IMG/VR virus record: IMGVR_UViG_3300024322_000001
Direction: 5' to 3' (one strand)
From: a virus
Taxonomy: Duplodnaviria; Caudoviricetes
DNA: 64,000 bases
The translations under genes were made by a program, and so were the position numbers. The notes under the pieces are model-generated. The model saw only the letters and a list, made by a program, of their open reading frames with translations. It made no database searches and was not told the origin of the DNA. How positions within the stretch are numbered: the stretch's first letter is position 1; every line of letters begins with the position of its first letter. Below are positions 3,305 through 38,400 of the stretch, in pieces.

Positions 3305-3494
3305 TAAAATATTCTTTTAAAAATTCTTCTCTATACAACATTACTTTACCTTTATAAGCTTTATTGCTTACGAACCTAGTATTTACAGGTTCTTTTGCTG
3401 ATTTAGCAGCTTTATAAACTTCTTCTCCAAGCTTTATACCTGCTGCATATCCTAAATGATCGTATAAGGATACTGAAGCTTGTTCTTTTATCAT
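3285..3494 (-). CDS. hypothetical protein
   Basis: 69-aa ORF; its start overlaps the queF stop codon. Confidence 0.65.
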   Translation of the reverse strand: MIKEQASVSLYDHLGYAAGIKLGEEVYKAAKSAKEPVNTRFVSNKAYKGKVMLYREEFLKEYFNGKRSN

Positions 3495-4405
3495 TACTGT
3501 CTAAGAGTTTTAGAAATTCTAAAATCTGTGTCTGTAAAGAAATCTGGTATAAATCTCGAATGGGTAGCTCTAATAGGATTAATATCTAAACCACCTCTTC
3601 TAGTATATAGACAAGCAACCATTAAATCATCAGGTTTATACGCATCCATTAAATGCTTAAATACCATTTCACATATTTCCTCATGAAAATGGCTTACCGT
3701 TCTATGAGATACAATATACTTAGCTAACGAAGCTACATCAGGTACATCTCTACCGTTAATTCTTATAAATACATCTCCCCAATCTGGTTGATTAGTAACC
3801 CTACAGTTAGATCTAAGTAAATTTGATTTTAACTTAACCTCGATAGGATCGTCTGAGTTATCTTCAACTGTTAGTTGATCTGAATCTGATTTAAATGCGG
3901 TAAAGTCTATTTCATCTAAATCTACTATATCACCTAAATCTGTATATCCTTCAAAAGATAATTCTTTGCCATCATCTAAATCAGTGTAAAAACTCACAGT
4001 AGTATTAGTTTCAAGTAACTTATCTAAATCAGCTTTTACCCTTCCCTCAATCTCTAAAATACATTCTACAGCTGTATCTCCTAATCTAGTCATATTAAAA
4101 GAATTTAAATATAGCTTAATAGATTTAGATTCCACGTGATATTCAGAATCTGAAGGGCATACTATTTTTAACATACCTGCTACAGGTAATCCTTTACTAG
4201 TAATAGCCGAAACTTCGTAACAGTTCCAGGTATCTACTCCAACAAAGTCTTTATCTGTCAAACCGTAACCTTCTCTATTTAAGTATCGAGGTACTTTAAC
4301 TAATAATTCTGGAGCGTAGGTATCTTTATACCCGTCTCCTCCTACTTTTCCTAAATGTTTAGACGCTATGTCTACTACTTCTTGATAATTTTTAACTTCT
4401 GCCAT
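3494..4405 (-). CDS. queF: NADPH-dependent preQ0 reductase, bimodular (type II) QueF
   Basis: QueF motif ESKSIKLYLNSF, catalytic region LRSNCRVTNQPDWG, FHEEICE, YTRRGGLDINP. Confidence 0.95.
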   Translation of the reverse strand: MAEVKNYQEVVDIASKHLGKVGGDGYKDTYAPELLVKVPRYLNREGYGLTDKDFVGVDTWNCYEVSAITSKGLPVAGMLKIVCPSDSEYHVESKSIKLYLNSFNMTRLGDTAVECILEIEGRVKADLDKLLETNTTVSFYTDLDDGKELSFEGYTDLGDIVDLDEIDFTAFKSDSDQLTVEDNSDDPIEVKLKSNLLRSNCRVTNQPDWGDVFIRINGRDVPDVASLAKYIVSHRTVSHFHEEICEMVFKHLMDAYKPDDLMVACLYTRRGGLDINPIRATHSRFIPDFFTDTDFRISKTLRQ

Positions 4406-4410
4406 TTTTT

Positions 4411-5016
4411 TTATTCTTTAATATAATCAATCCAATTAGTTCCTTTTGTATCTCTATTAGGAAATACAAATTTTCGTTTAATATCGCCAATAGTAATAGT
4501 CTTAATAAAACTAGAAGGTACCGTAGCACCAGTTCTTAATACTTCTGACTCGTCTGTAAATACTAACTCCACTCTTACATGTATATCAGTATTAAAAAAT
4601 TTAGCTGCATCTCTTTCAAATGCTTCTAATCTACTCCACTGTCCCCTATTTAACCCTTCGTGCTGTAATGCAGAATTAAAGTAAGAAAACGTGCTTCGTA
4701 AGGATTCTTCAGTACAGCTAAAAGAAGCTGCAGGAGCAAGGTGTCCTTTATCCCAAATATTGTTTTTATAGTCCTCATTATCGGATGTATCATAACCTTC
4801 CGGAATCCAAAAATCCATTCCATGTCTAGATTCCTTACCGTTAGGGCAAGTTATAGTATACTCCACCCATAATGGCTGTTGTAGTTTTTGATCGTACTCT
4901 ACTTTAAATGTTTCAGTTTCTACTATCTGTGCATTTAACGTTGATGTTACAAATATTGTTATAAAAAATATTATTGCAAATAATAATAATTTTTCTGAAG
5001 ATTCTAATTTATTCAT
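4411..5016 (-). CDS. DNA/RNA non-specific endonuclease (NucA/EndoG family) with signal peptide
   Basis: WDKGHLAPAA (DRGH-like), NSALQHEGLNRGQWSRLE, VP motif; hydrophobic N-terminus ending LNA|Q. Confidence 0.9.
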   Translation of the reverse strand: MNKLESSEKLLLFAIIFFITIFVTSTLNAQIVETETFKVEYDQKLQQPLWVEYTITCPNGKESRHGMDFWIPEGYDTSDNEDYKNNIWDKGHLAPAASFSCTEESLRSTFSYFNSALQHEGLNRGQWSRLEAFERDAAKFFNTDIHVRVELVFTDESEVLRTGATVPSSFIKTITIGDIKRKFVFPNRDTKGTNWIDYIKE

Positions 5017-5531
5017 TTTATAAATTCCATTATTTGTTCTACTCTTTGCATAGGAGAACCAGTTATAGTGAGATAAGGCTGACGTACACCTTCTAACACT
5101 GCTTGAAACTCATCATCTACTTCTTTTCTCCATTCTTCACTTATACTTCTTACTCCATCATCTACAGAATCAAATTCAATAGGAAAGTAAATATAATGAG
5201 TATATTCATTTTTTACCCTATTCCAAGTATCTTCTATATAGCTGTAAGTATGTGAAGTTACTCCTTTCATAAACTTAGTATAAACTACCACATCCATATA
5301 ACATCTATCTAATACTAAGTTATAAGGTTGAAGTAAAGCTTCTAAATGAAAGCTACTAATAGCTAACTGAGTAGCACAAGTACCTTCTTCGTTGATAGGA
5401 AATCCATAACTACCAACAGTTCTAGTAGATTCGTTTACGAATTCATATTTAGGTAATTTATTTTTAAGTAGTTCATAAACAGTAGTCTTACCTGTACTAC
5501 TTGCTCCTACTAATGCTATTCTTGTTATCAT
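5013..5531 (-). CDS. P-loop nucleotide kinase-like protein (AAA_28/dNMP kinase-like)
   Basis: GASSTGKTT Walker A, LDRC, DDGVR; typical NMP/dNMP-kinase-like layout. Confidence 0.75.
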   Translation of the reverse strand: MITRIALVGASSTGKTTVYELLKNKLPKYEFVNESTRTVGSYGFPINEEGTCATQLAISSFHLEALLQPYNLVLDRCYMDVVVYTKFMKGVTSHTYSYIEDTWNRVKNEYTHYIYFPIEFDSVDDGVRSISEEWRKEVDDEFQAVLEGVRQPYLTITGSPMQRVEQIMEFIK

Positions 5532-5676
5532 AAAACCTATTTAATGTATTATACATACCTGCTATTCCAAAGTCAGCACCATATTTTTTATTTTGATCTA
5601 AAAAAAACATCATTAATCTTTGAAATGAATTACCTTCACTTTTTCTTACTAAATAAAATTCTTTATCTATATTCAT
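5497..5676 (-). CDS. hypothetical protein (59 aa)
   Basis: Hand-translated MNIDKEFYLVRKSEGNSFQRLMMFFLDQNKK...; fills the gap between dpdN and the kinase. Confidence 0.5.
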   Translation of the reverse strand: MNIDKEFYLVRKSEGNSFQRLMMFFLDQNKKYGADFGIAGMYNTLNRFYDNKNSISRSK

Positions 5677-5679
5677 TTT

Positions 5680-6222
5680 CTATAAAATTTGTCTCAAAAA
5701 ATTGCACCACATATACAAGCTTCTATCTCTTAATATACGAAATAAATCATCTAATTCCAACTGAAAAGTATTAAATTTTTCTTCAGCAATAATTCTTCCT
5801 TCATCAACCTCAGCTACTACTTTATGCAATACTGCACCTGCTGTAGGATATTTACCTTCTTTAATACCTTCGAAAGCTCTTACTTGAGGATCTTTACCTT
5901 TCAGTTCTGGATATTCAGTTATGAGCCCTGGATGCCCATTATAGATAAGGTATTTTCTACATATAGAAGGAGGCATAACTCTTAACCACCCGTGTAAAGT
6001 AACTAAAGCATTATCTTCTAACACTACATCATAATCCTCTACTGATGGTTTATTCGGCAGGAAAATAATATCCATATCGAGTAATTCATCATTTATTTTT
6101 CTTAAATGCTCAGGTCTTTGATTAGTAATTATTTTATCAGGCCATCTACCAAATGCCTTTGCTATATCTACTATTTCAGTCCCTGTCTGACTAAAGAATG
6201 CTATCCAAAGTTTGTCTCCCAT
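5680..6222 (-). CDS. dpdN: PurN-like formyltransferase, putative dPreQ1 formyltransferase DpdN
   Basis: FFSQTGTE (PurN SGxGSN equivalent), LHGWLRVM, NGHPGL (catalytic N/H), HKVVAEVDEG (catalytic D); adjacent to the DpdA-like gene. Confidence 0.8.
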   Translation of the reverse strand: MGDKLWIAFFSQTGTEIVDIAKAFGRWPDKIITNQRPEHLRKINDELLDMDIIFLPNKPSVEDYDVVLEDNALVTLHGWLRVMPPSICRKYLIYNGHPGLITEYPELKGKDPQVRAFEGIKEGKYPTAGAVLHKVVAEVDEGRIIAEEKFNTFQLELDDLFRILRDRSLYMWCNFLRQIL

Positions 6223-7018
6223 TTGTAAACCATCTAAATTTTTGTATATTATTTTTAATTGTACCTAATTGCTCTATTGATATATCAGAGTTAATAAGTT
6301 CATGTAATTTTTGTCTCTCTTTAGACCATAATCCGTCTGATCTATATGTTATATTTTTAATACCGTGAACTACAGGATTTGAAGTATCTAAAGAGTATAT
6401 CCAGTCGTAATCAGAGTGCTTATAAAAACTAAATTCTTGAGGAAGCCCACAGCCGAGGAGATGATGAGGTTTAGTTTGATTAATTACTCCATCTCTAAGT
6501 AAGTCTCCTAGTAGCTTAACACGTCCTAGCATCCAACTAACATACTTGTTAGCATGAGGAACTGACTGTGTGTAGTACGAGTAATCAAAAGAAATAGCTA
6601 TCATATCTACATCTGCTGATTTATTCATATAGTTGTAGCAATCTACAATTTCATCATAGGATTTACCTTGTACTACACCTATTTTACCGCTTCCCTTATA
6701 TCCATACCCTTTATTAATCCAATCCTCCATCTGATCGCATGTTTTTTGAGCATCTTCCAAAGCATCTGGAACTATATACCAGGAAGGTTTAAGTTCGTTA
6801 ACCCATCTATTAAATTTATCTGCATCGAAAGCTTCTTCTAATTCAAAAATAGAATTATCTAAAATAACCTCTCTACCTTTACTTACTGCTTTTTTAAATT
6901 GAGCCAAGTATTCTTCATCTTCTTCAAATAAATGTACTAAAGCGTAATCGTAGTCTGTATACTTTTGAACTTCATCAAAAATACTTTTAGGACTTTCGTG
7001 TGCAATTTTTATATTCAT
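6191..7018 (-). CDS. dpdA: TGT-fold 7-deazaguanine transglycosylase, DpdA3-like
   Basis: ILDNSIFE, IVPD, GVVQG, HHLLG and SLDTSNP match the TGT/DpdA barrel motifs; lies within the que cluster. Confidence 0.75.
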   Translation of the reverse strand: MNIKIAHESPKSIFDEVQKYTDYDYALVHLFEEDEEYLAQFKKAVSKGREVILDNSIFELEEAFDADKFNRWVNELKPSWYIVPDALEDAQKTCDQMEDWINKGYGYKGSGKIGVVQGKSYDEIVDCYNYMNKSADVDMIAISFDYSYYTQSVPHANKYVSWMLGRVKLLGDLLRDGVINQTKPHHLLGCGLPQEFSFYKHSDYDWIYSLDTSNPVVHGIKNITYRSDGLWSKERQKLHELINSDISIEQLGTIKNNIQKFRWFTNGRQTLDSIL

Positions 7019-7036
7019 ATAACTTATTTTTGATTT

Positions 7037-7237
7037 TTACTCTTTACCTTCCTTAAACGTATCGTCTAAAATATTTGAAATATATCTTACATAGCCGTCT
7101 AATTTATTCATTTCCGTATTAAGTTTTTTATCATACGTGAATACTTCTTTGACAGCCTGTTGAGCAATTTCTAGCGGCACATATTCTTTTCCGTCTACTG
7201 TTATAATGTAATCCTCTAAATTAGTACCCTTACTCAT
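7037..7237 (-). CDS. hypothetical protein
   Basis: 66-aa ORF within the operon. Confidence 0.6.
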   Translation of the reverse strand: MSKGTNLEDYIITVDGKEYVPLEIAQQAVKEVFTYDKKLNTEMNKLDGYVRYISNILDDTFKEGKE

Positions 7238-7733
7238 TGAAAAACTTTTTTAAATTAGGTCTAAAGTAATTAACTGATTTCATTACTTTTCTATCTCTTG
7301 TTCTGTATACAATATACAAGTCTTCTACTTTTTCATAATGACATTCTTCATTATAAGCTTTAGACCTGACGGCGACAGTTTCTTTTGCTTCTTCTTCAGT
7401 TTTACAAGCTTTAGACATATTAGAAGCCTGTACCTCTTGATATGCTGGCCATATCTTATCCTTAAGGCCGTGTAACATAGTACCGTTCCCAAGGGAAACA
7501 TAAGCAATGTCGCACAAAGCGTCCAAAACTTCAACGATGTCTCCGTTCTCACACGCTTCTCTATATTCTTCAAGCTCTTCGAGTATAAAGTCATATACGA
7601 ACTGCCACTCTTTCTTCTCTGGTATAGTCGGTTCATAGTTATTTGGTTTGCCAAATGTGGCATTAAATTCTTCTACTTCAGAAACAAATGGTACGTAATC
7701 TGTTTCTCGGAATAATGATAGTTGTTTACCCAT
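7230..7733 (-). CDS. MazG-like all-alpha NTP pyrophosphatase (DR2231/PRA-PH type)
   Basis: EELEEY, EVLDALCDIAYV and SNMSK motifs. Confidence 0.85.
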   Translation of the reverse strand: MGKQLSLFRETDYVPFVSEVEEFNATFGKPNNYEPTIPEKKEWQFVYDFILEELEEYREACENGDIVEVLDALCDIAYVSLGNGTMLHGLKDKIWPAYQEVQASNMSKACKTEEEAKETVAVRSKAYNEECHYEKVEDLYIVYRTRDRKVMKSVNYFRPNLKKFFNE

Positions 7734-8169
7734 TTTTACTCATTTTTTTCCACCAATCTGTTTTATTGATGAGTTGTTTTTCTTTTCTGTCTACTAAATC
7801 GTCTAAATGATCGTATATACCACGATCCCAATCGTCTTGATATCTAATGATATCATCTTCTCCGAAATAATCTCCGGTTTGCACTTCTATAAATTGTACT
7901 GGTTTATCAGTTTTATTCCAAGCTCTATGTTTACTGCAGCAAGGTATGGTTATAGATTCACCAGGATTATCTAGAGAGTATTCATCACCATCTCTAATGA
8001 CAGTTAACTCTCCACTTACTAGAGTCCATTGCTCTTGTCTCTTCTCATGAGACTGATAGGATAATCTCTTACCTGGAGCTACGGTGATTAGTTTAACTTT
8101 AGTAAAGTCAGTATCTAATAGTACATCGTAGCAACCCCAAGGTCTTTCATCGTGTTCTAATGATTGCAT
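7726..8169 (-). CDS. cupin, phosphomannose isomerase type II C-terminal-like
   Basis: ERPWGCY, LSYQSHEKRQEQW, IEVQTGDYFGEDDIIRYQDDW. Confidence 0.85.
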   Translation of the reverse strand: MQSLEHDERPWGCYDVLLDTDFTKVKLITVAPGKRLSYQSHEKRQEQWTLVSGELTVIRDGDEYSLDNPGESITIPCCSKHRAWNKTDKPVQFIEVQTGDYFGEDDIIRYQDDWDRGIYDHLDDLVDRKEKQLINKTDWWKKMSKNG

Positions 8170-8870
8170 TTCTCTGCTAATTCTATATTCTTATAAAACT
8201 CAGCTTTAGCTGATGGTTCATCTAAAAAGGCTCCAGTTAGTTTAGCTGTTTGCATTGATGCTCCTCCATGCTTAACTCCTCTACAGGAAACACAAGCGTG
8301 AGTTGCATTAACTTGAACTGCTACTCCTAAATTGCCTTCACATATCTTATCTACTGCATTATGTATAGCTACAGTTAACTGCTCTTGAATAGCTCCTCTT
8401 CTACCGAATTGTTCTACTATTCTATTTAGTTTAGATAGTCCTACTACCTTACCATCTTCTGAAGCTATATAAGCAATACTTACTGTGCCTCTAATAGCTT
8501 GATGATGATGCGAACACATAGACGTTACTGGTATGTTACTCTCTTGTACGATACCGTCATACCCGTCTGAAGGAAAAGCTGTAATCTTATCTAAAGGGCT
8601 ATATCTTCCAGCCCATAAATCGTTAACATATGCTTTAGCTACCCTAAATGGTGTATCTGCAGAGTTAGGATCTGCTGCATAATCACATCCTAAAGCGGTA
8701 AGGAACTCTGCATAAGCCTTTGCTGCTCTTTCTATAATTACTTGTTTTTCATGATCAGTAAGTCTTGCTTCTGGTCCTTCCAGCTTTTGTTTTTCTGCTA
8801 ATTGAGTTGAAATACCGTTAGCGAAACCGGCTTTTACTAATTCTGTTCCTTTTATAAACTTTTTTGGCAT
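8157..8870 (-). CDS. folE: GTP cyclohydrolase I
   Basis: TPFRVAKAY, SMCSHH, GLSKLNR, QEQLT, HACVSCRG. Confidence 0.96.
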   Translation of the reverse strand: MPKKFIKGTELVKAGFANGISTQLAEKQKLEGPEARLTDHEKQVIIERAAKAYAEFLTALGCDYAADPNSADTPFRVAKAYVNDLWAGRYSPLDKITAFPSDGYDGIVQESNIPVTSMCSHHHQAIRGTVSIAYIASEDGKVVGLSKLNRIVEQFGRRGAIQEQLTVAIHNAVDKICEGNLGVAVQVNATHACVSCRGVKHGGASMQTAKLTGAFLDEPSAKAEFYKNIELAEKCNH

Positions 8871-8878
8871 AATATAAT

Positions 8879-8908
8879 TTATGTTTTTATTGAGGTTCTA
8901 CGACTCAT
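8879..8908 (-). ncRNA. putative preQ1-I riboswitch aptamer in the folE leader
   Basis: A-UGAG-UCGUAGAAC-CUCA-AUAAAAACAUA: P1 stem, UCG..AG..AC loop and A-rich tail. Sits between the promoter and the folE AUG. Confidence 0.7.
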
Positions 8909-8919
8909 TACTATAACTT

Positions 8920-8950
8920 AATATAAGAACTTTTATTCATTAATCCAAAT
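8920..8950 (-). promoter_or_regulatory. Bacteroidota sigma-type promoter (TTG-N20-TATATT) upstream of folE
   Basis: ATTTG-N20-TATATT; the same 31-bp spacing recurs at about 11 other gene starts. Confidence 0.7.
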
Positions 8951-9359
8951 AATCTTGAATTGTTTTTGAATCTTTTTTCTCCCATGGGTACACGATCCAA
9001 TCAGTAGTTTCTAACCAATTGCAGTAGAAGTCTGGTTTTGTTACTGTAGTGTTTCTTACGTCTAATGTAGCTGTTGTGTATCCCTGTTTCTTAAAGTGTT
9101 TGAGGGTCTGTCCAGAGTCGGATATATCATCCACTATTAATATTTTTTTCTTATCTATATTAAGGTTAAACTCCTCTAACTTTTCTAGATGGTCTATAGT
9201 TATGTGCTTTATCCCCAGTTTATGAGACATAATGACTGCTACTACTAAACCTCCTCTCGGTATACCTACTACGTAATCTACATTTTTAATTTTATTTGCT
9301 AATTTTTCTACCTGGTGGTCTATATCGTTCCAGGTAACGAATACTTTTTTTGGAGTCAT
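8940..9359 (-). CDS. type I purine phosphoribosyltransferase (Gpt/Hpt-like)
   Basis: VVGIPRGGL, PRPP loop LIVDDISDSGQT, WIVYPWE. Confidence 0.9.
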   Translation of the reverse strand: MTPKKVFVTWNDIDHQVEKLANKIKNVDYVVGIPRGGLVVAVIMSHKLGIKHITIDHLEKLEEFNLNIDKKKILIVDDISDSGQTLKHFKKQGYTTATLDVRNTTVTKPDFYCNWLETTDWIVYPWEKKDSKTIQDYLD

Positions 9360-9362
9360 ATC

Positions 9363-9665
9363 TTACTTTAATATTAACGTTGATAAATGTACTATGTTAT
9401 ACTTAATTGCATAGTCAACAACTTCTTGTCCTGTTTCTTCACTTACGATTCTTATATCTTTGAAGTCAAGACCTTCTTCGTTAACATATTCTACTAATTC
9501 CCTAACAGTACAGCTATGATTTTCCAAGTTCATCAAATCTAAGGTCTGTATGGAGTCCATTGTAATTAATTCTAAGGTATTCCCAGATAGTTTATAATCC
9601 CAAATAGGACTATTTAAAAAGTACACCTTACGGTCTAAATCTTCTAAAATATTACTATAATTCAT
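9363..9665 (-). CDS. hypothetical protein
   Basis: 100-aa ORF within the operon. Confidence 0.6.
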   Translation of the reverse strand: MNYSNILEDLDRKVYFLNSPIWDYKLSGNTLELITMDSIQTLDLMNLENHSCTVRELVEYVNEEGLDFKDIRIVSEETGQEVVDYAIKYNIVHLSTLILK

Positions 9666-9789
9666 TTATAAAAATTTTTAGTTTATCTATTAATACTAGT
9701 ACATCGTCTGGTTCCATAGTAATAGCACAGCATGTATTAATATTTTCTTCTACTTCTTCTAATATCTCTAAAGCTTCGTCTTTAGTCAT
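9655..9789 (-). CDS. hypothetical protein (44 aa)
   Basis: Hand-translated MTKDEALEILEEVEENINTCCAITMEPDDVLVLIDKLKIFINEL; start overlaps the queE stop. Confidence 0.6.
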   Translation of the reverse strand: MTKDEALEILEEVEENINTCCAITMEPDDVLVLIDKLKIFINEL

Positions 9790-10577
9790 TATACTTCACG
9801 TTGATCTTCAAAAGCAATGATATGCGGTCTCCAAGTCATTCTATAACCATTATCTCTAACCCAATCAAATAATACCGGATAAGATTTAAATAATGCTTCC
9901 CTTGAATCTCCTGCAGGCATAAACCATACCTTACTTTTAGGTATTTTTAACCTGTAAATACAGGTCATTATTTCCTCTAAAGCTTTTTCATCTTTACCAT
10001 CCCATACAGGTTTTAAATGATAGTCAGAGTGGTAATTGATACTTTCTTCTATAGCATCATAATTAAGTCTAAACTTATTATGCTGCTTTATCATTCTTTC
10101 GTCAGTAATCCCTCCTTGAGGAGTCTCTACGCCAATGACTGGAACAGAATTAGAAAACTTAGGGCTAATAGATAGCAGATTAATAGGGTAATCTGTGGGT
10201 AGAAAGTGACTACCTTCAGTTTCGATAGTAATAAATATATTATTCTCATTTGCAAAGTGTGTTAATTCGTTTACCAAAGCTGGATGCATTGTAGGAGAAC
10301 CTCCTGTTAGCATCATTTCTTTAATATGGGGGTTATCTTTATACTTTTGTATAATATCGTTAAAATTAAATTGACCTTTTTCTGGATGGATTGAAGTATA
10401 CCAGCTATCACACCAGCCTCCTTCTCCAAAGTAACATCTATGGGTACAGCCAGTAGTTCTAATTACTATAGTTGGGTACCCTGCTCTTGAACCTTCTGAC
10501 TGTACTGCAGTATAAACTTCTACAATCGGTAAGTTCTTTTCGTAATCTTCTATTCTTTTTAATTGTTTATGCGACAT
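9789..10577 (-). CDS. queE: 7-carboxy-7-deazaguanine synthase (radical SAM)
   Basis: EVYTAVQSEG, RTTGC, CTHRC...WCD, TGGSP, ETEG, SISPK, RPH. Confidence 0.93.
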   Translation of the reverse strand: MSHKQLKRIEDYEKNLPIVEVYTAVQSEGSRAGYPTIVIRTTGCTHRCYFGEGGWCDSWYTSIHPEKGQFNFNDIIQKYKDNPHIKEMMLTGGSPTMHPALVNELTHFANENNIFITIETEGSHFLPTDYPINLLSISPKFSNSVPVIGVETPQGGITDERMIKQHNKFRLNYDAIEESINYHSDYHLKPVWDGKDEKALEEIMTCIYRLKIPKSKVWFMPAGDSREALFKSYPVLFDWVRDNGYRMTWRPHIIAFEDQREV

Positions 10578-11031
10578 AATAAGCTGCGTTTTTTCCGTGT
10601 TCCATAAATTTTACTTTCGTCACCTTAACTCTACCTTCTGTTTCTTCTTCTACAAAATCATTTAATTTATTAAAAATATATTCTGCAAATTTTTCTGCTC
10701 CGGTAGCAGGTATAACTCTGATTTGTGCTACTTCTGATAATCCCATATGTAGAAATTTATCTAAATAGGGGTCGTCCTGAGCAACTATGAAGGTATGGTC
10801 GAACATATAATCCATCCATTGCTTAGGAGATAAGCCATCTATTTTAGTCTTAGCTCTTTTCATACCTCCGAAGTCCCATACCCAGTTTCTGTAGTCTAAT
10901 TCTCCTTCAAAATATACTTTAAATGCTACTCCGTAGCCGTGAACAAACCTACAATGTGTATCTTCTGCTTTCCATTGACGGAACACAGTAGAGAACCCGT
11001 CGAATACTTTACTTGATTGAAATTTTCCCAT
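10567..11031 (-). CDS. queD: 6-carboxytetrahydropterin synthase
   Basis: HCRFVHGY, DFG, FDHT, GAEKFA, terminal E. Confidence 0.92.
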   Translation of the reverse strand: MGKFQSSKVFDGFSTVFRQWKAEDTHCRFVHGYGVAFKVYFEGELDYRNWVWDFGGMKRAKTKIDGLSPKQWMDYMFDHTFIVAQDDPYLDKFLHMGLSEVAQIRVIPATGAEKFAEYIFNKLNDFVEEETEGRVKVTKVKFMEHGKNAAYYVA

Positions 11032-11040
11032 ATCTTTAAT

Positions 11041-11274
11041 TTAAACTAATTCTTCCCCTATTCCAACTATTTCTGCTAAAAATAGACCTATAAAGCCTAA
11101 TTCAAACATACCAAAGAAGCCAAAAGCACATGCTCCTAGCCTAATAGCTGATTTTAAAAATGAAATTCTTTGGTGAAGTTTCGGATCAGGTATTTTCTGT
11201 CCGTCGATCTCAATAGAACCTTTTTGTTTTTTAAACTCCGTATCTTTATACAGAGTATTTGCTTTTTTACTCAT
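11041..11274 (-). CDS. small membrane protein, first gene of the queD-queE operon
   Basis: Two short hydrophobic segments (AIRLGACAFGFFG, LGFIGLFLAEIVG). Confidence 0.7.
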   Translation of the reverse strand: MSKKANTLYKDTEFKKQKGSIEIDGQKIPDPKLHQRISFLKSAIRLGACAFGFFGMFELGFIGLFLAEIVGIGEELV

Positions 11275-11276
11275 AT

Positions 11277-11306
11277 TGGTGTTTTTAAAGTGGTGCTACG
11301 ACACTA
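11277..11306 (-). ncRNA. putative preQ1-I riboswitch aptamer in the leader of the queD/queE operon
   Basis: U-AGUG-UCGUAGCAC-CACU-UUAAAAAC: nearly the same loop as the folE copy with a different, compensated stem. Confidence 0.65.
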
Positions 11307-11324: not shown

Positions 11325-11355
11325 AATATAATAAAAAAAGGGATAGTAAGCAACT
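11325..11355 (-). promoter_or_regulatory. sigma-type promoter AGTTG-N20-TATATT
   Basis: Recurring bipartite motif; overlaps the upstream terminator. Confidence 0.65.
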
Positions 11356-11363
11356 ATCCCCTT
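11333..11363 (-). terminator. intrinsic terminator after fibre gene 11383..13131
   Basis: GGGATAGT-TGCTT-ACTATCCC hairpin followed by a T run on the minus strand. Confidence 0.8.
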
Positions 11364-11382
11364 AGTTTTTTTTAAATTATTT

Positions 11383-13131
11383 TTATGCTAGTAATGCTAA
11401 TAAAGAACCTGTAAAGTCATTGTAGTTTGTTGACCCTGTTAATGCAGCTCTTAATTTTGCTTTGCTAACATAATTTAATTCAATAGAAGCTGATGGTACA
11501 AATGTGTAAGCATCCTGCTCTAAATCGTGAATATCGTTATGATTTTCTGTCCACGATTGTGCTATAGAAGCAGACAGCATTGTAAATGAACCTGTAATGT
11601 CAGCTTTTAAAGCGTATGAACTTGTTGCTGCTAATAGTCCTAGTTGCGAACCAGATAATGCAGCTATATCGTCATTGTTGTTACTTACATCGGTTTGTAG
11701 AATTGCTATGTCATCTACATTGGCAGTAGTCACGACTGCAAAAGATGCTGAAACTGCATCTAGCTGTGCATCAGTAGCATACTCACTATCTATAGAGGAA
11801 CTAAAACTTTCTAAGCTTATAATTCTAGCATCTAAAGAAGCTGTAGCTGTATATAATTCATCTTCAGAAGCATATATATTATCAAATGAAGAACTAAAGT
11901 TTAATAGATGTGCTGTTTCTAAAGCAAGTGATGAAGACACACTATCTAGTTGTGCGTCTGTAGCATAATAGTTGTCTAAAGAAGAACTAAAGTGATCTAA
12001 TCTAGCTATAGATTCCGAGACATTGCTATATCCTGCTATCGATAATTGACCAGATTCTGCTTTAATATTTCTAATTGTGACAATGTCATTATCTGCTGAT
12101 ATTTTGCCAGTGGTATTTATATCATCAGAAGCATATATAGTACCGGTTACCGCGATTCCATTAGTAGTAGTTGAGAATTTTTTAGCATTATCATAATAAA
12201 GCTCAATAGGACCATCTTTTGTAAACTTAGCAAAAGTTTCTCCCAATTGTCCTGATTTGATTTCAACTTCATTATCTGAAACTATTAATAGATCTCCAGA
12301 TCCTTTTTCCTGTATATGTGAATTTCCAGCTACATCTGAGAATATATCTAGTTTGCTATCTATTGCAATTTTTCTACCTGCTGTGGCAAGTATTATATCT
12401 CCATTGGATACTGTTACTGTACCTTCTTGATCAAGAGTACCAATTCTAGTATAGTCTCCTTTTTGACCAGTATCTCCATTGTGATCTATATCACCAAGTA
12501 AAAAAGTACTACCTGTAATTGATAAATCTCCTTTAAATTTACTATCTGCATTTACATAGAAAGGATAGTCAGCTTCTTCTTTTAGATTTGCTCCTAATTT
12601 AAATCTACTTGAAGAAGGATGGTTAATCTGTATTCCTGCATATCTGGTAGGAATACCAGATTCTACTTTATAGTAGTCTTCTAATTTAATATGTTCTCCA
12701 TTACCACCAGCTACTCCATCTCTTCCTGCTTCAGAGATACTAAATTTATTATTATAAAAAGTAGTATAGTTTACGTTTGAAGACGTAGTTTCTGCTGCTA
12801 ATTGAAGACCGTGTAAACCTTCTGTATCAGTCGGTAGTACCTCTAACAATCCTCCTCCGTTAACTCCCTTTTGAAGATTTATATCGTCTCCTAGAGTTAT
12901 AGATTTATTAGAATCTAATCCTCCACTAACAAATACTGAACCTGTGAAGTTATGTAGATCATCTGCAGAATCTCCAAACAGAGTAGAACCTGATCTGTAG
13001 ATGATTGATGTTTGTACTTTTTCCGTTATAAATTGTTCTGCAGTTACATCTCCTGTAACTATCAGACTGCCGGATAGACTTACTATCTGTCCGCTTATCG
13101 GTTTAATGCTATTTACTCTAATTCTACTCAT
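11383..13131 (-). CDS. putative virion fibre/structural protein
   Basis: SIIYRSGSTLFGDSADDLHNFTGS motif, VELYYDN-like knob (IELYYDNAKKF), C-terminal YATDAQL coiled-coil repeats; late-type motif upstream. Confidence 0.65.
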   Translation of the reverse strand: MSRIRVNSIKPISGQIVSLSGSLIVTGDVTAEQFITEKVQTSIIYRSGSTLFGDSADDLHNFTGSVFVSGGLDSNKSITLGDDINLQKGVNGGGLLEVLPTDTEGLHGLQLAAETTSSNVNYTTFYNNKFSISEAGRDGVAGGNGEHIKLEDYYKVESGIPTRYAGIQINHPSSSRFKLGANLKEEADYPFYVNADSKFKGDLSITGSTFLLGDIDHNGDTGQKGDYTRIGTLDQEGTVTVSNGDIILATAGRKIAIDSKLDIFSDVAGNSHIQEKGSGDLLIVSDNEVEIKSGQLGETFAKFTKDGPIELYYDNAKKFSTTTNGIAVTGTIYASDDINTTGKISADNDIVTIRNIKAESGQLSIAGYSNVSESIARLDHFSSSLDNYYATDAQLDSVSSSLALETAHLLNFSSSFDNIYASEDELYTATASLDARIISLESFSSSIDSEYATDAQLDAVSASFAVVTTANVDDIAILQTDVSNNNDDIAALSGSQLGLLAATSSYALKADITGSFTMLSASIAQSWTENHNDIHDLEQDAYTFVPSASIELNYVSKAKLRAALTGSTNYNDFTGSLLALLA

Positions 13132-14660: not shown

Positions 14661-14734
14661 TGGAGAATATCGGAGTCGAACCGATGACCTCCTGCGTGCA
14701 AGGCAGGCGCTCTAGCCAGCTGAGCTAATCCCCC
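14661..14734 (-). tRNA. tRNA-Ala(UGC), CCA not encoded
   Basis: GGGGGATTAGCTCAGCTGGCTAGAGCGCCTGCCTTGCACGCAGGAGGTCATCGGTTCGACTCCGATATTCTCCA; cloverleaf, TGC anticodon, G3:U70 Ala identity pair. Confidence 0.96.
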
Positions 14735-14910: not shown

Positions 14911-15699
14911 TTATACATAGTCAGCAAGTACTTTTTCAACATGAGTTTTTGCTACTTCGTAATCAACCACTCCAGTTTCATCCTCATACTGTACAGGATC
15001 TTTTCTCCCCAAAGCAATAAAAGCCTCAATCCTCTCAACACTAGAAGCAGACTTATAATCGGAATTTCCACTAGGATAGGGTTTGTACGATGTATTAGTT
15101 CTCTTATAAACTTCATCAAAATCAATACCTAAAATTTCACATAATTTTTCTCCATCTTGTAGAATACCAAATTTATCAGTATCTAAATAAGGTGTAAAGT
15201 AACCTACTCTATCTGCATCCCAGTTTCCAATTCTAAAAGCTGCATCATCTGCATCTCTAAATTCTTGTCTACAATCAGGATAAACTGCATGATCACCAGC
15301 ATGAATACCTAAAGCAATATCACAAACGTCTTCTGTTCTATTTGCTACAGATAATGCAACTGCTTGAGTAATTGAAGCAAACATTTTGTTTCTATTAGGA
15401 ACAACTGTTTCTTTCATATTATCTTGCTCATAATGTCCTTCTGGTACATCATCCCCACCTGTAACTAAAGCTGAGTCTAATAAATCTACTAGACCATCAA
15501 GTTTAATTTGACGATAATTTATTTTGTGTCCTTTACTTGCAAGGTAATCAATTAATGATTGAGCTCTCTCTAGCTCTACTCTGTGTTTTTGACCGTAATC
15601 AAATGAGATACCAGTTACGGTATCATACTTCTCGATAGCTCTTAACAATAGGGTGCTACTATCCATTCCACCACTTAAACTTACTACACAATGTGCCAT
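14911..15699 (-). CDS. queC: 7-cyano-7-deazaguanine synthase (Zn-binding Cys motif absent)
   Basis: SLSGGMDS PP-loop, FDYGQKH, VPNRN, YPDCR. Confidence 0.95.
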   Translation of the reverse strand: MAHCVVSLSGGMDSSTLLLRAIEKYDTVTGISFDYGQKHRVELERAQSLIDYLASKGHKINYRQIKLDGLVDLLDSALVTGGDDVPEGHYEQDNMKETVVPNRNKMFASITQAVALSVANRTEDVCDIALGIHAGDHAVYPDCRQEFRDADDAAFRIGNWDADRVGYFTPYLDTDKFGILQDGEKLCEILGIDFDEVYKRTNTSYKPYPSGNSDYKSASSVERIEAFIALGRKDPVQYEDETGVVDYEVAKTHVEKVLADYV

Positions 15700-15752
15700 A
15701 ATTTACTTATTTAATTTTTGCCAGGTATTTTGCGTATAGGCTAACGCTTTTA

Positions 15753-35478: not shown

Positions 35479-38400
35479 TTAGTATCGGGACCCTAAAGCT
35501 TTACCTACTTGGAATCCATCCATCTGTATTACAGTGTCTTTTCTATCTCCTAAAGCTTCGGCAAGTAAGAATGTTTGTCTTCTTAATTCTTTCATTTCTT
35601 TCCTATGTTCTTTAGATTGTTCTTGATTTATTTTTTTAAGCTCTTCTAATTCTCTGTTTGATGAGCTATCTATCGTAGATGTTAATCCTTCTAGCTCTTC
35701 ACTAAATATTGTTTTAGCTGCTATATCTACCTTTATTACCCCTTTACCTACTGTTTTAGCAAATGATCCAAGATCCTCTAATATACTCTTTGCATTAGAT
35801 AAATCTATAGAAGTAGCATCTTTTATTGCCAGCATTGATGTTCTTAAAGATTCAATTTTATTAGTATCTATATCTTCAAGTTTATTAAAAGCATCTATAC
35901 CGTTCCCTAAATCTTCAATACCGTCGTAGAACTTATCAGTATCATTATCAAAAGTACCTAAAGAAGTCATTGCCGTACCAAATGCTTGTAATGCTTCAGC
36001 GTTAGAAATTATTTTTTTTGTTTCTAGTTTAGCATTAGCAAATGCATTCATTTCTTCGTAAGGAATACCGCTAGTACCTCCTAAGGCATCCGTTATGCCG
36101 TCAACTAGTTCACTACCCATCTTACCTAACGACTTGAAGAACCCGCTAGGCACATCTTGAAGTGATGCCATTGCTAAAGCATAAGCTGTTAAAGCCTTTG
36201 CGTTATTACCTATTTTTTCAGCATCTAAATCAGCATTTTCTAATTCTTTTAATTTATCGTAAGGAATACCTCCTAAACCGATAGATTCAGCTAATCCAGT
36301 AACTAATTGACCAGCTGCTTTTCCTAATGAAGCTAAAAATCCACCTGCTTCTGATGATGCTAATTTAGCCATCGCTATGGCATACTCACTTATAGCTTCA
36401 GAATTATTTTTTATTTTATCTTTCTTAAAATCATATCCTTGGAAAATTTTAACTTTATCTAATGGAAGAGGCCCTCCAAGCCCAGCCATTAATCCATCTG
36501 CAAGGTTACCTGCTATGGATGATAAAGATGCTACAGATGATGCAGCTGAACCTCCTGCTAATTTAGCCATACCGATTGCATAACTAGCTATTGCAGAGGC
36601 ATTATTTTTAACTTTCTTAGGGTCGAAGTTATACTTTTGAAATTTATCTACTTTATCTAATGGAAGAGGGCCTCCTACTCCTGCTACAATTCCGTCTACT
36701 ACTGAACCACTTAAAGCTGCTAGCGATGCTACGGATGATGCTGCTGCTCCTCCTGCTAAAGCAGCCATACCTAATGCATAACTTGCTAATGCTGATGCAT
36801 TATTTTTAACTTTATCAGCATCGAAATTATATGTTTGGAATTTAGAAACTTTATCTAATGGAAGAGGGCCTCCTATTCCTGCTACTATTCCATCTACTAG
36901 TGAGCCACCCAGGCCAGCTAAAGAAGATAATGAAGATGCTGCTGATCCTCCTGCTAATGCAGCCATGCCTCTTGCATAACCTGCTATTGCACGAGCGTTA
37001 TTTTCAACTTTATCAGCATCTAAGTTATACTTACCGAATTGCTGTACTTTATCCATTGGAAGATCACCTCCTAGTGTAGATGTAAGTCCGTCTAAGAGTG
37101 CACCGCCTAGGTTAGCTAAACTGGCAATTCCACCGCCTGCTGCTCCGCCAGCTAAAGCTGCCATACCTACTGCGTATCCAGCTACTGCCCGGGCATTGTT
37201 CTCTATCTTATCAGCGTCTAAATTCCACTTACCGAATGCTTGTACTTTATCCATAGGTAGACCTCCTCCTAGCGATGCTGTAAGTCCGTCTAAGAGTGTG
37301 CTACCTAGATTTGCTAATCCTGCTACGGCGCCAGCACCTGCTCCAACTGCTAGTGCTCCCATTGCAAGAGCATATGCTACTACTCCTTTGGCATTATTTT
37401 CTATTTTACCGGCATCAAAGTCATAATTTTTTCCAAACTTCTCTACCTTTTTAAGCATTTCATCAATACCGTCACCACCGAAAAATGATCCAATAGCTCC
37501 CATTAGTCCACCTACTGCTTGAGCTGCTGTACCTGCTGCCATAGCGGTAAGTCCAAGTCCAACTGCTGCCATTCCAGCTCCTGCTTTTATAAGTGCAGAA
37601 CCGTCTAATTCTGCAATTGATTCCATTCCTTTGGCCAATGTTGGTAACGATTTACCCATTAACCAAGAAGCTCCTGCAATACCGGCGCCAATTAATGTAA
37701 TAGCAGCTCCTAGTACTGCTGCACCAGCAAGAACCTGGCCAGAACCAAATGCTTTTATACCAAAAGCTAAACCTTCAAGGATACCTTTTATACCTTTTCC
37801 TATTCCTTTAGCAAAATCGCCTATTCCTTTTCCTATACCCTTTAGCATTCCACCAACACCTCCTGCGGCGCCTCCACCTGCTGCGGACTTACCTGGTGCC
37901 TTTGCAAATCTACCCATTTTGTCTCTAAACCCGGAAGGAGAAGATGCAGATTTTACTAAATCTCCAGAACCTCTCTTCTTAAATACTGATGTTAGCTTGC
38001 TTAATATTCCTCCTCCACCTGCAGCAGCAGCACCTCCTTTTTTGTTTTTAAACATTGAAGTGAATTTGCTGAGTATTCCGGCGGTCTTATCACCTATGTT
38101 TTTTACAAACATTGGCATCATAGGAGTACCTCTCATTTTCTTAAAAATACCACCTATTGCAGAAAGACCTTTAAATCCTATGGTTAAAGCTCCACCTGTC
38201 ATTGTGGCAGCTCCTAATAGCATACCTAACATACTTCCTTTGCCTAACGTATTTTTAAATACTGTATCACCTCCGGTAAATGCATCTTTAAATGTCTTTA
38301 TTACTAGGTCTTTTATTCTGCCTAGTGAACCCATTATATCTTTAGGATCAAATGCATCTCTAATAAGATTGAAAAATTTAAATGCTCCTAATGATAAATC

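Follow-up and report, generated by a model that had tools for sequence, protein, structure and literature searches.

A probable minimal preQ1-I-like riboswitch in two copies in a phage 7-deazaguanine DNA-modification cluster

Our analysis of a 64,000-nucleotide stretch of the Caudoviricetes virus record IMGVR_UViG_3300024322_000001 (hereafter the window; the whole phage record comprises 116 kb) did reveal two copies of a small RNA element, a 25-base RNA hairpin with an A-rich tail, in the leaders of the folE and queD operons of a 7-deazaguanine DNA-modification cluster, whose enzymes make the modified guanine found in the DNA of this Flavobacterium-type phage. The element is probably a minimal, phage-specific riboswitch that senses prequeuosine 1 (preQ1) or prequeuosine 0 (preQ0) and blocks translation without a Shine-Dalgarno sequence. 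This reading is based on conservation, covariation, gene association and a position-by-position match to a known ligand pocket, all of which were observed. The two copies and the signals next to them are:

8883 to 8907, minus strand: candidate folE-leader aptamer core (direct reading; 45.5 bits with covariance model R1; one of two descriptor matches in the window)
8871 to 8882, minus strand: 12-nucleotide (nt) spacer AUAAAUUAUAUU from the aptamer C to the folE AUG (direct reading)
8920 to 8948, minus strand: promoter-like element of the folE leader (TTG 8948-8946, 20-nt spacer, TATATT 8925-8920), ending 12 nt before the stem P1
11281 to 11305, minus strand: second candidate aptamer copy, in the queD-operon leader (direct reading; R1 52.5 bits, E 3.3e-10)
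11325 to 11361, minus strand: terminator-like hairpin and promoter-like element of the queD leader (direct reading)

On the minus strand, positions 8908-8879 read A-UGAG-UCGUAGAAC-CUCA-AUAAAAAC-AUAA; a preliminary description of this site, made from the letters alone, had given sequence and coordinates exactly. The 5′ arm of P1 is UGAG (8907-8904) and the 3′ arm CUCA (8894-8891), enclosing the loop UCGUAGAAC (8903-8895, with the loop C at 8895), and the A-rich loop L3, AUAAAAA (8890-8884), leads to the invariant tail C at 8883. The spacer to the folE AUG (8870-8868) begins with A8882; an A next to the tail C is found in all rows of the seed alignment A2 and in 40 of the 41 distinct rows of alignment A3 (see below), the divergent row being L166.

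The second copy is the strongest single piece of support and is absent from the preliminary description. It reads AGUG-UCGUAGCAC-CACU-UUAAAAAC-A and is separated by six bases from the AUG (11274-11272) of an open reading frame (ORF) of 77 amino acids (aa). Its 5′ arm AGUG occupies 11305-11302, the loop UCGUAGCAC 11301-11293, the 3′ arm CACU 11292-11289, L3 (UUAAAAA) 11288-11282 and the tail C 11281. Loop and tail hardly differ from those of the folE copy, whereas in two of the four stem pairs both bases are replaced. A loose descriptor of type II preQ1-I aptamers (4-bp Watson-Crick stem closed by G-C, loop U...AC, 1-3 nt, at least four A, C) found exactly two matches on both strands of the window, namely the folE site and 11305, compared with a mean of 0.055 in 200 dinucleotide shuffles, one of which reached two; a strict descriptor matched none of the 200 shuffles. 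When the 116-kb genome was searched with R1, a covariance model built from the element, the queD copy scored 52.5 bits and the folE copy 45.5 bits (E 1.6e-8), and the next best match 13. Both strong matches sit in the deazaguanine cluster. A third match to TCGTAGNAC, at 35924, lies antisense within a 1617-aa ORF and was rejected as chance.

Since a conserved TATATT-like box and a TTG precede P1, each copy appears to own a promoter and the aptamer would lie at the very 5′ end of the mRNA. The box (permissive match) is found 6-21 nt upstream of P1 in 173 of 180 distinct leaders, and in 129 of these 173 a TTG lies about 15-26 nt further upstream. The TTG/TATATT site of the folE leader was not listed in a sigma-70 promoter scan. 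Before the queD copy, a terminator-like hairpin pairs GGGAUAG (11360-11354) with CUAUCCC (11346-11340) and is followed by a T-run (11339-11333). Its loop contains the TTG (11353-11351) of the next promoter-like element, whose TATATT is at 11330-11325. This hairpin (11340-11361, minus strand) closes a 582-aa gene, and the same overlap of terminator and promoter-like element was seen in the related leaders L161 and L162.

Conservation and covariation in related phages

About 180 distinct leaders (180 counted) from viral and metagenome contigs carry the element. In IMG/VR a pattern scan returned 44 instances whose stem is completely paired, and all of those with readable downstream sequence precede FolE, the 77-aa ORF with QueD-QueE, QueD, or QueE. 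The metagenome scan gave 127 instances, of which 122 have a perfect stem: 111 of these are followed within 400 nt by the 77-aa ORF, FolE, QueD or QueE, eight are too short and three show no such match. For the five instances with imperfect stem, FolE comes next in two and nothing was recognised in three. Matches to the pattern that have a 4-nt gap proved to be conserved coding sequence and were rejected. In the folE leader of a related phage a third version of the stem occurs, GGAG-UCGUAGAAC-CUCC-AUAAAAAC-A.

To avoid selection by motif, we gathered 80 loci by similarity of the FolE protein (68-97% identical) and then searched them with R1. All 91 matches were on the gene strand and were located either immediately in front of folE, as in 52 of 80 loci, or 2.2-3.6 kb upstream, where the queD operon starts. 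In the alignment of the 41 distinct FolE-anchored sequences (A3), 99.4% of the stem cells are paired, and three of the four stem pairs vary on both sides (AU 20, UA 11 and GC 9; UA 26 and AU 15; GC 40 and AU 1). The observed covariation score was reached by none of 500 shuffles, and slid controls pair in 31-62%. The preliminary description had named covariation in related folE leaders as a check, and P1 does covary. The first loop U, the loop AG, the last loop C, the top G-C pair and the tail AAAC-A are fixed across this set, with the exception of one divergent tail (L166); the second loop base is C in 40 of the 41 rows, and further loop variants are UCACAG, UCGGAG, UCGAAG and UUGAAG. In the set of 180 leaders the pocket positions are fixed by the search expression, and that set therefore adds nothing on their invariance.

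Motif-bearing loci share a synteny with QueF and DpdN (preQ1-type). No copy was found in the Cellulophaga phages phiST and phi13:1, and phiST-like clusters, which make 7-deazaguanine itself, lack the motif. A blastn search with the queD leader against cultured phages gave no match. When one genome per species was scanned with the strict pattern across 185,579 prokaryotic species, the only hit was a 5.9-kb contig with two copies (L218, NYWG01000135.1). It is filed in a Verrucomicrobiales metagenome-assembled genome and carries the two copies 2.3 kb apart in the phage arrangement; a misbinned phage contig is probable. In some relatives (L161, L163-L165 and L167-L169) the TATATT box is kept about 100 nt before folE while the aptamer is lost; these retain the copy in the queD leader, which indicates that the folE copy is dispensable.

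One of the imperfect-stem metagenome instances, the only one annotated, is followed by FolE2, a non-homologous GTP cyclohydrolase (PF02649, E 1.8e-70). That the RNA is kept although the enzyme family is swapped indicates that it is tied to a function and not to one gene lineage. At this locus (L227:668-2750) FolE2 is followed by a cupin (mannose-6-phosphate-isomerase-like), a phosphomannomutase-like gene and a DpdA-like gene; in some metagenome relatives with FolE2, sugar-metabolism genes thus sit inside the base-modification cluster.

These data also bear on whether the element could be a conserved 5′-end feature that senses nothing, such as a stabilising 5′ hairpin, the initially transcribed sequence of a promoter class, or a mini-ORF running from an AUG at 8908 to a UAA at 8879. 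The element does follow directly after a conserved promoter-like box, and the 30 bases of the preliminary description form an open 9-codon frame in this window. However, the genome of 116 kb must hold many promoters and has only two copies, both in the deazaguanine cluster, which excludes a general promoter-proximal element. The element is also retained before the non-homologous FolE2, and a plain stabilising hairpin would have no need of an invariant loop and tail. As for a leader peptide (8908-8879), most leaders have an AGUG or GGAG stem and lack its AUG; the frame is not conserved and was rejected. We consider a non-sensing feature highly improbable.

Comparison with preQ1-I aptamers

The phage consensus, NGNG-UC(G/A)(U/C)AG-NA-C-CNCN-NUAAAAA-CA, can be compared with the aptamer of Thermoanaerobacter tengcongensis, CUGGG-UCGCAGUAAC-CCCAG-UUAACAAAA-CAAG (PMC10639078). 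Type II preQ1-I riboswitches are defined by an AC before the 3′ arm of P1, and in T. tengcongensis the pocket has the pair G5-C16 as its floor and C7-G11-C30 as its ceiling (PMC11625349). The phage element likewise has an AC next to the 3′ arm: the C is invariant in the 41 distinct FolE-anchored sequences and the preceding A is found in all but one variant (CC). The invariant G-C pair on top of the stem is the counterpart of the floor, the loop C, loop G and tail C of the ceiling are retained, and A31 is matched by the A after the tail C. In one metagenome variant the loop, UCGCAGUAC, equals the T. tengcongensis loop minus one A. As aligned, each invariant phage base falls on a residue of the pocket or the tail in the T. 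tengcongensis type II aptamer, and from the presence of these bases we infer the pocket contacts of the phage element.

Further features are shared with type II members (T. tengcongensis, Bacillus subtilis queC leaders, Rfam family RF00522), namely a loop that starts with UC and ends with AC including the specificity C, a G-C pair atop P1, a loop AG whose G can pair with the C ending an A-rich 3′ tail, the association with preQ0/preQ1 synthesis genes and a location directly before the start codon, as in T. tengcongensis. The type II anatomy that the preliminary description had recognised (closing G-C, loop start UC, AG, AC with specificity C, and an A-tract ending in C) is therefore present throughout. 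The differences are that P1 of the phage element has 4 bp and not 5, loop L2 has 2 nt and not 3-5, and L3 has 7 nt and not 8-9, that the UAAGG or Shine-Dalgarno part of the tail is missing, that the helix P2 is without support beyond the G-C pair, and that the element occurs only on phage-like DNA and with two copies per cluster. With preQ1-I types I and III (C. antarcticum, E. coli) it would share the small H-type pseudoknot architecture and translational control. However, type I binds two ligands and has UC where the phage element has AC next to the 3′ arm, and in type III a complete AAGG Shine-Dalgarno sequence is buried, whereas the phage element has none (PMC11625349).

Searches with Infernal and the Rfam PreQ1 model (RF00522), which the preliminary description had proposed, place the element below the family threshold. 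The gathering score of this model is 39 bits. The folE leader, scanned over 48 to 401 bases, gave no Rfam match even at E<=10, and when the model was run over the whole 116-kb record the folE-leader element was again not reported; the window copies stay under about 10 bits. In three related records, with an 8-9-nt L3 and longer A-tracts, the best match of the PreQ1 model is exactly the folE leader (14.6, 17.9 and 14.0 bits). For L209, PreQ1 ranked top of 4227 families, aligning stem on stem and tail on tail (Rfam tail consensus AUAAAAAACUAAGG). The scores thus leave the element outside the Rfam family, but the exact placement of the best matches on the leaders shows a significant sub-threshold likeness. 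Neither preQ1-II (RF01054) nor preQ1-III (RF02680) was listed at E<=10 when both leaders were compared with all families by cmscan. Two other PreQ1 matches were rejected as chance: one at 11356-11391 (17.3 bits) rests on AAAAAAAACUAAGG beside the terminator and has no stem, and another (16.0 bits) lies outside the window in the phage genome. The DUF805 RNA motif (RF03081, Bacteroidota) resembles the element in having a consensus GUG...CAC hairpin followed by UUAAAAAAC, and the queD leader scores 12-17 bits with it. However, coding DNA of related contigs reached equal or better scores and the folE copy was unmatched, and we regard this as a chance-level resemblance in shape.

The preliminary description had further proposed compensatory pairs in P2, A10-U32 and U9-A33. 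Both do exist in the folE leader of this window, where U8881 and A8880 could pair with the loop bases A8899 and U8900, but among 24 distinct leaders they are found in only 3 and 15, respectively, and are not conserved. The loop pyrimidine can pair with the third base past the tail C in 78 of 113 distinct cores; where it is a C it does so in nine of nine, mirroring C9-G33 of T. tengcongensis, although these nine probably represent one clade.

Several results weigh against a preQ1 riboswitch. P2 has no covariation support: only its G-C pair is constant, and an invariant pair proves nothing. In the position-by-position alignment P1, L2 and L3 are each shorter than in the T. tengcongensis or B. 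subtilis aptamer. Neither copy of the window is matched by the Rfam PreQ1 model at E<=10, and related leaders reach 14-18 bits against a cut-off of 39. No element precedes folE in 28 of the 80 FolE loci, some of which have QueF and DpdN, and part of the apparent invariance stems from the search patterns used for collection. The hairpin is also weak: the four pairs of the folE copy alone give -1.0 kcal/mol, its leader folds no better than shuffles (z 0.54), and P1 alone is marginal across copies and leaders (-0.7 to -2.6 kcal/mol). For the queD copy ViennaRNA predicts a register-shifted hairpin, GUGU/GCAC, at -2.4 kcal/mol compared with -0.7 for P1, leaving P1 a probability of 0.08. Given this thermodynamic weakness, the case rests on comparative data. 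A CAC-CAC repeat in the queD copy (11293-11304, minus strand) permits the register-shifted hairpin, a predicted rival of the aptamer fold. Speculatively, it could raise the ligand requirement of this copy, and the two copies may thereby differ in threshold.

The same results have to be weighed for a translational operator, in which a phage or host RNA-binding protein would recognise the conserved loop on its variable stem and repress or activate both operons, the tail being an ordinary A-rich Bacteroidota initiation region. A conserved loop on a covarying stem is also typical of protein-binding hairpins, P1 alone is too weak without a partner, P2 is without covariation support, and a small conserved ORF is usually first after the queD-type copy. 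Against a protein as the partner stands the tail. Its AAAC-A keeps its spacing to the hairpin (L3 is A-rich, 5-9 nt long, and 7 nt in 163 of 180 leaders) and not to the AUG, which follows the tail C after 5-13 nt; the tail therefore belongs to the RNA element. Furthermore, all invariant bases fall on pocket or tail positions of preQ1-I aptamers, the Rfam PreQ1 model has the element as its best match in three records, and no candidate protein is a constant companion, since Immuto-type phages have the folE copy only and the 77-aa ORF is missing from several loci. A protein operator therefore appears quite improbable.

Proposed control of translation

If the element is a riboswitch, each copy would be a minimal aptamer of the type II preQ1-I kind that senses a free 7-deazaguanine base made by the phage pathway, i.e. 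preQ1 and possibly preQ0. Transcription would begin a few bases past the TTG-N20-TATATT promoter, giving a 5′ untranslated region with little beyond the aptamer; this start, as well as the fold, ligand binding and OFF rather than ON logic, we infer. In the presence of ligand the 4-bp P1 hairpin, its loop and the A-rich tail would form an H-type pseudoknot, in which the last loop C reads the ligand, the top G-C pair of P1 serves as pocket floor, the loop G paired with the tail C as ceiling, and the A-tract lies in the groove of P1. The folded knot would keep 30S subunits from loading at folE and at the gene that opens the queD-queE operon, an effect that overlapping ORFs would carry downstream.

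Control should act on translation, because with the tail C 5-13 nt from the AUG there is no room for a terminator. No Shine-Dalgarno sequence that could be sequestered was found in the element or its leader. Bacteroidota ribosomes disregard the Shine-Dalgarno sequence and rely on an unstructured leader. In Flavobacterium johnsoniae, whose mRNA lacks Shine-Dalgarno sequences, initiation is tuned by mRNA structure and upstream bases (PMC6847099). Since the knot would end a few bases before the AUG and Flavobacterium initiation is sensitive to structure, 30S binding should be hindered. In the related phage immuto_2-6A all G is replaced by formyl-preQ1, at 345,000 per million nucleotides (PMC10516641), which implies a heavy draw on GTP. 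The two elements would then act as OFF switches that keep FolE and QueD-QueE in step with the pool of free preQ1/preQ0. The GTP-consuming pathway, which provides the preQ1 needed to exchange every G for formyl-preQ1, would thereby be under feedback control.

The same fold and regulatory role could serve a ligand other than preQ1, such as preQ0, formyl-preQ1, 7-carboxy-7-deazaguanine (CDG) or guanine, and could even switch translation on. Type II affinities rank in the order preQ1, preQ0, guanine, and T. tengcongensis discriminates preQ1 from preQ0 only 17-fold (PMC11625349). The phages end with formyl-preQ1 in their DNA, and DpdN may modify either the free base or the DNA (PMC10516641). The shortened L2 and altered P2 would also fit a changed ligand. 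On the other hand, the specificity C and all pocket positions are the same as in preQ1 binders, and the motif tracks clusters that contain QueF, while phiST-type clusters, which go no further than CDG or 7-deazaguanine, lack it. In the folE leader of this window the tail C and the bases that follow it form a weak hairpin with UUAUG, which would suit an ON switch, but this AUG-hiding hairpin is not conserved in relatives. A different ligand is thus rather unlikely, and a preQ1/preQ0-sensing OFF switch is favoured.

A bolder form of the favoured reading, which we put forward only tentatively, is that of a riboswitch lineage owned by phages. It would comprise the smallest natural preQ1-type aptamer (~25 nt), be tuned to the precursor pool of DNA hypermodification (perhaps preQ0 or formyl-preQ1, and not preQ1), and gate translation by folding the A-rich initiation region in hosts that ignore Shine-Dalgarno sequences.

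Gene content and significance

The preliminary description had listed FolE, DpdA, DpdN and a bimodular QueF in the folE operon, and Pfam and homology searches recovered them all; DpdA and DpdN were identified by homology to annotated genes of immuto_2-6A together with PMC10516641. The genes of the two operons and queC are as follows, all on the minus strand:

8157 to 8870, minus: folE, GTP cyclohydrolase I, first gene after the candidate aptamer (Pfam PF01227, E 1.2e-41)
3494 to 8169, minus: remainder of the folE operon, ORFs mostly tightly packed (ORF list and Pfam)
7726 to 8169, minus: cupin, folE operon
7230 to 7733, minus: MazG-like pyrophosphohydrolase, folE operon
between the MazG-like gene and the DpdA homologue as listed, minus: 66-aa ORF, folE operon
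6191 to 7018, minus: DpdA homologue (75% identical to DpdA of immuto_2-6A)
5680 to 6222, minus: DpdN-like formyltransferase (homology to the annotated immuto_2-6A gene; PMC10516641)
5013 to 5531, minus: P-loop kinase-like protein, folE operon
4411 to 5016, minus: non-specific nuclease, folE operon
3494 to 4405, minus: bimodular QueF, folE operon
8940 to 11274, minus: operon after the second candidate aptamer (Pfam and ORF list)
11041 to 11274, minus: 77-aa ORF, first gene of the queD operon
10567 to 11031, minus: QueD (Pfam PTPS, 1.5e-14)
9789 to 10577, minus: QueE (Pfam Radical_SAM, 1.1e-6)
between QueE and the phosphoribosyltransferase as listed, minus: two small ORFs, queD operon
8940 to 9359, minus: phosphoribosyltransferase (Pfam Pribosyltran, 5.6e-11)
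14911 to 15699, minus: queC (Pfam, E 3e-37)

The ORFs from folE through the DpdN-like gene and those of the queD operon are mostly overlapping or near-abutting. The 77-aa ORF is conserved and usually opens the operon that follows the queD-type aptamer (74 of 127 metagenome instances); its sole Pfam signal is a weak SRA-domain match (E 0.007). The phosphoribosyltransferase (8940-9359), the MazG-like gene (7230-7733) and the P-loop kinase-like gene (5013-5531) show conserved synteny with the que, dpdA and dpdN genes, which hints at a nucleotide-level route for the modified base. The queC leader (15718-15748, minus strand) contains a different 4-bp hairpin, GCGU/ACGC, with an A-rich stretch, and is not matched by R1. 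Between queC and a 479-aa gene lies a tRNA gene (14661-14734, minus strand; 66.8 bits), and an Rfam scan of the whole window at gathering thresholds reported tRNA only.

In the literature searched, no paper connects riboswitches with 7-deazaguanine modification of phage DNA, and no published description of the element was found, in line with the preliminary description. Papers on phage 7-deazaguanine make no mention of riboswitches. The words riboswitch, regulat- and promoter are all absent from the paper on formyl-preQ1 DNA and DpdN (PMC10516641), and a 2024 review of preQ1 riboswitches does not mention phages (PMC11625349). Riboswitches are rare in phages according to a 2017 survey, which gives two prophage c-di-GMP-I examples and two cyanophage glutamine aptamers (PMC5473149). 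These, from Clostridioides difficile prophages and cyanophages, are likewise metabolite-sensing RNAs on phage DNA, but they are a handful of members of ordinary bacterial classes, whereas the present element is a phage-specific variant with ~180 distinct leaders in a DNA-hypermodification pathway (PMC5473149). In Streptococcus phage Dp-1, considered as a precedent, no Rfam riboswitch match was found before the que operon. Most likely, judging from the sequence comparisons, the element is a pared-down preQ1-I architecture that is confined to phage-like DNA, has no Shine-Dalgarno sequence and controls a DNA-modification pathway.

As a regulator, it would be the first to be put forward for 7-deazaguanine modification of phage DNA. 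Because this pathway spends GTP to replace every genomic G, how a phage meters it is a real question; a cultured system exists. The element would show how far the preQ1-I fold can shrink with its pocket kept, and would provide a test case for translational riboswitches without a Shine-Dalgarno sequence. If the bolder reading of a phage-owned lineage is true, it would be a first worked example of riboswitches gating translation in Bacteroidota.

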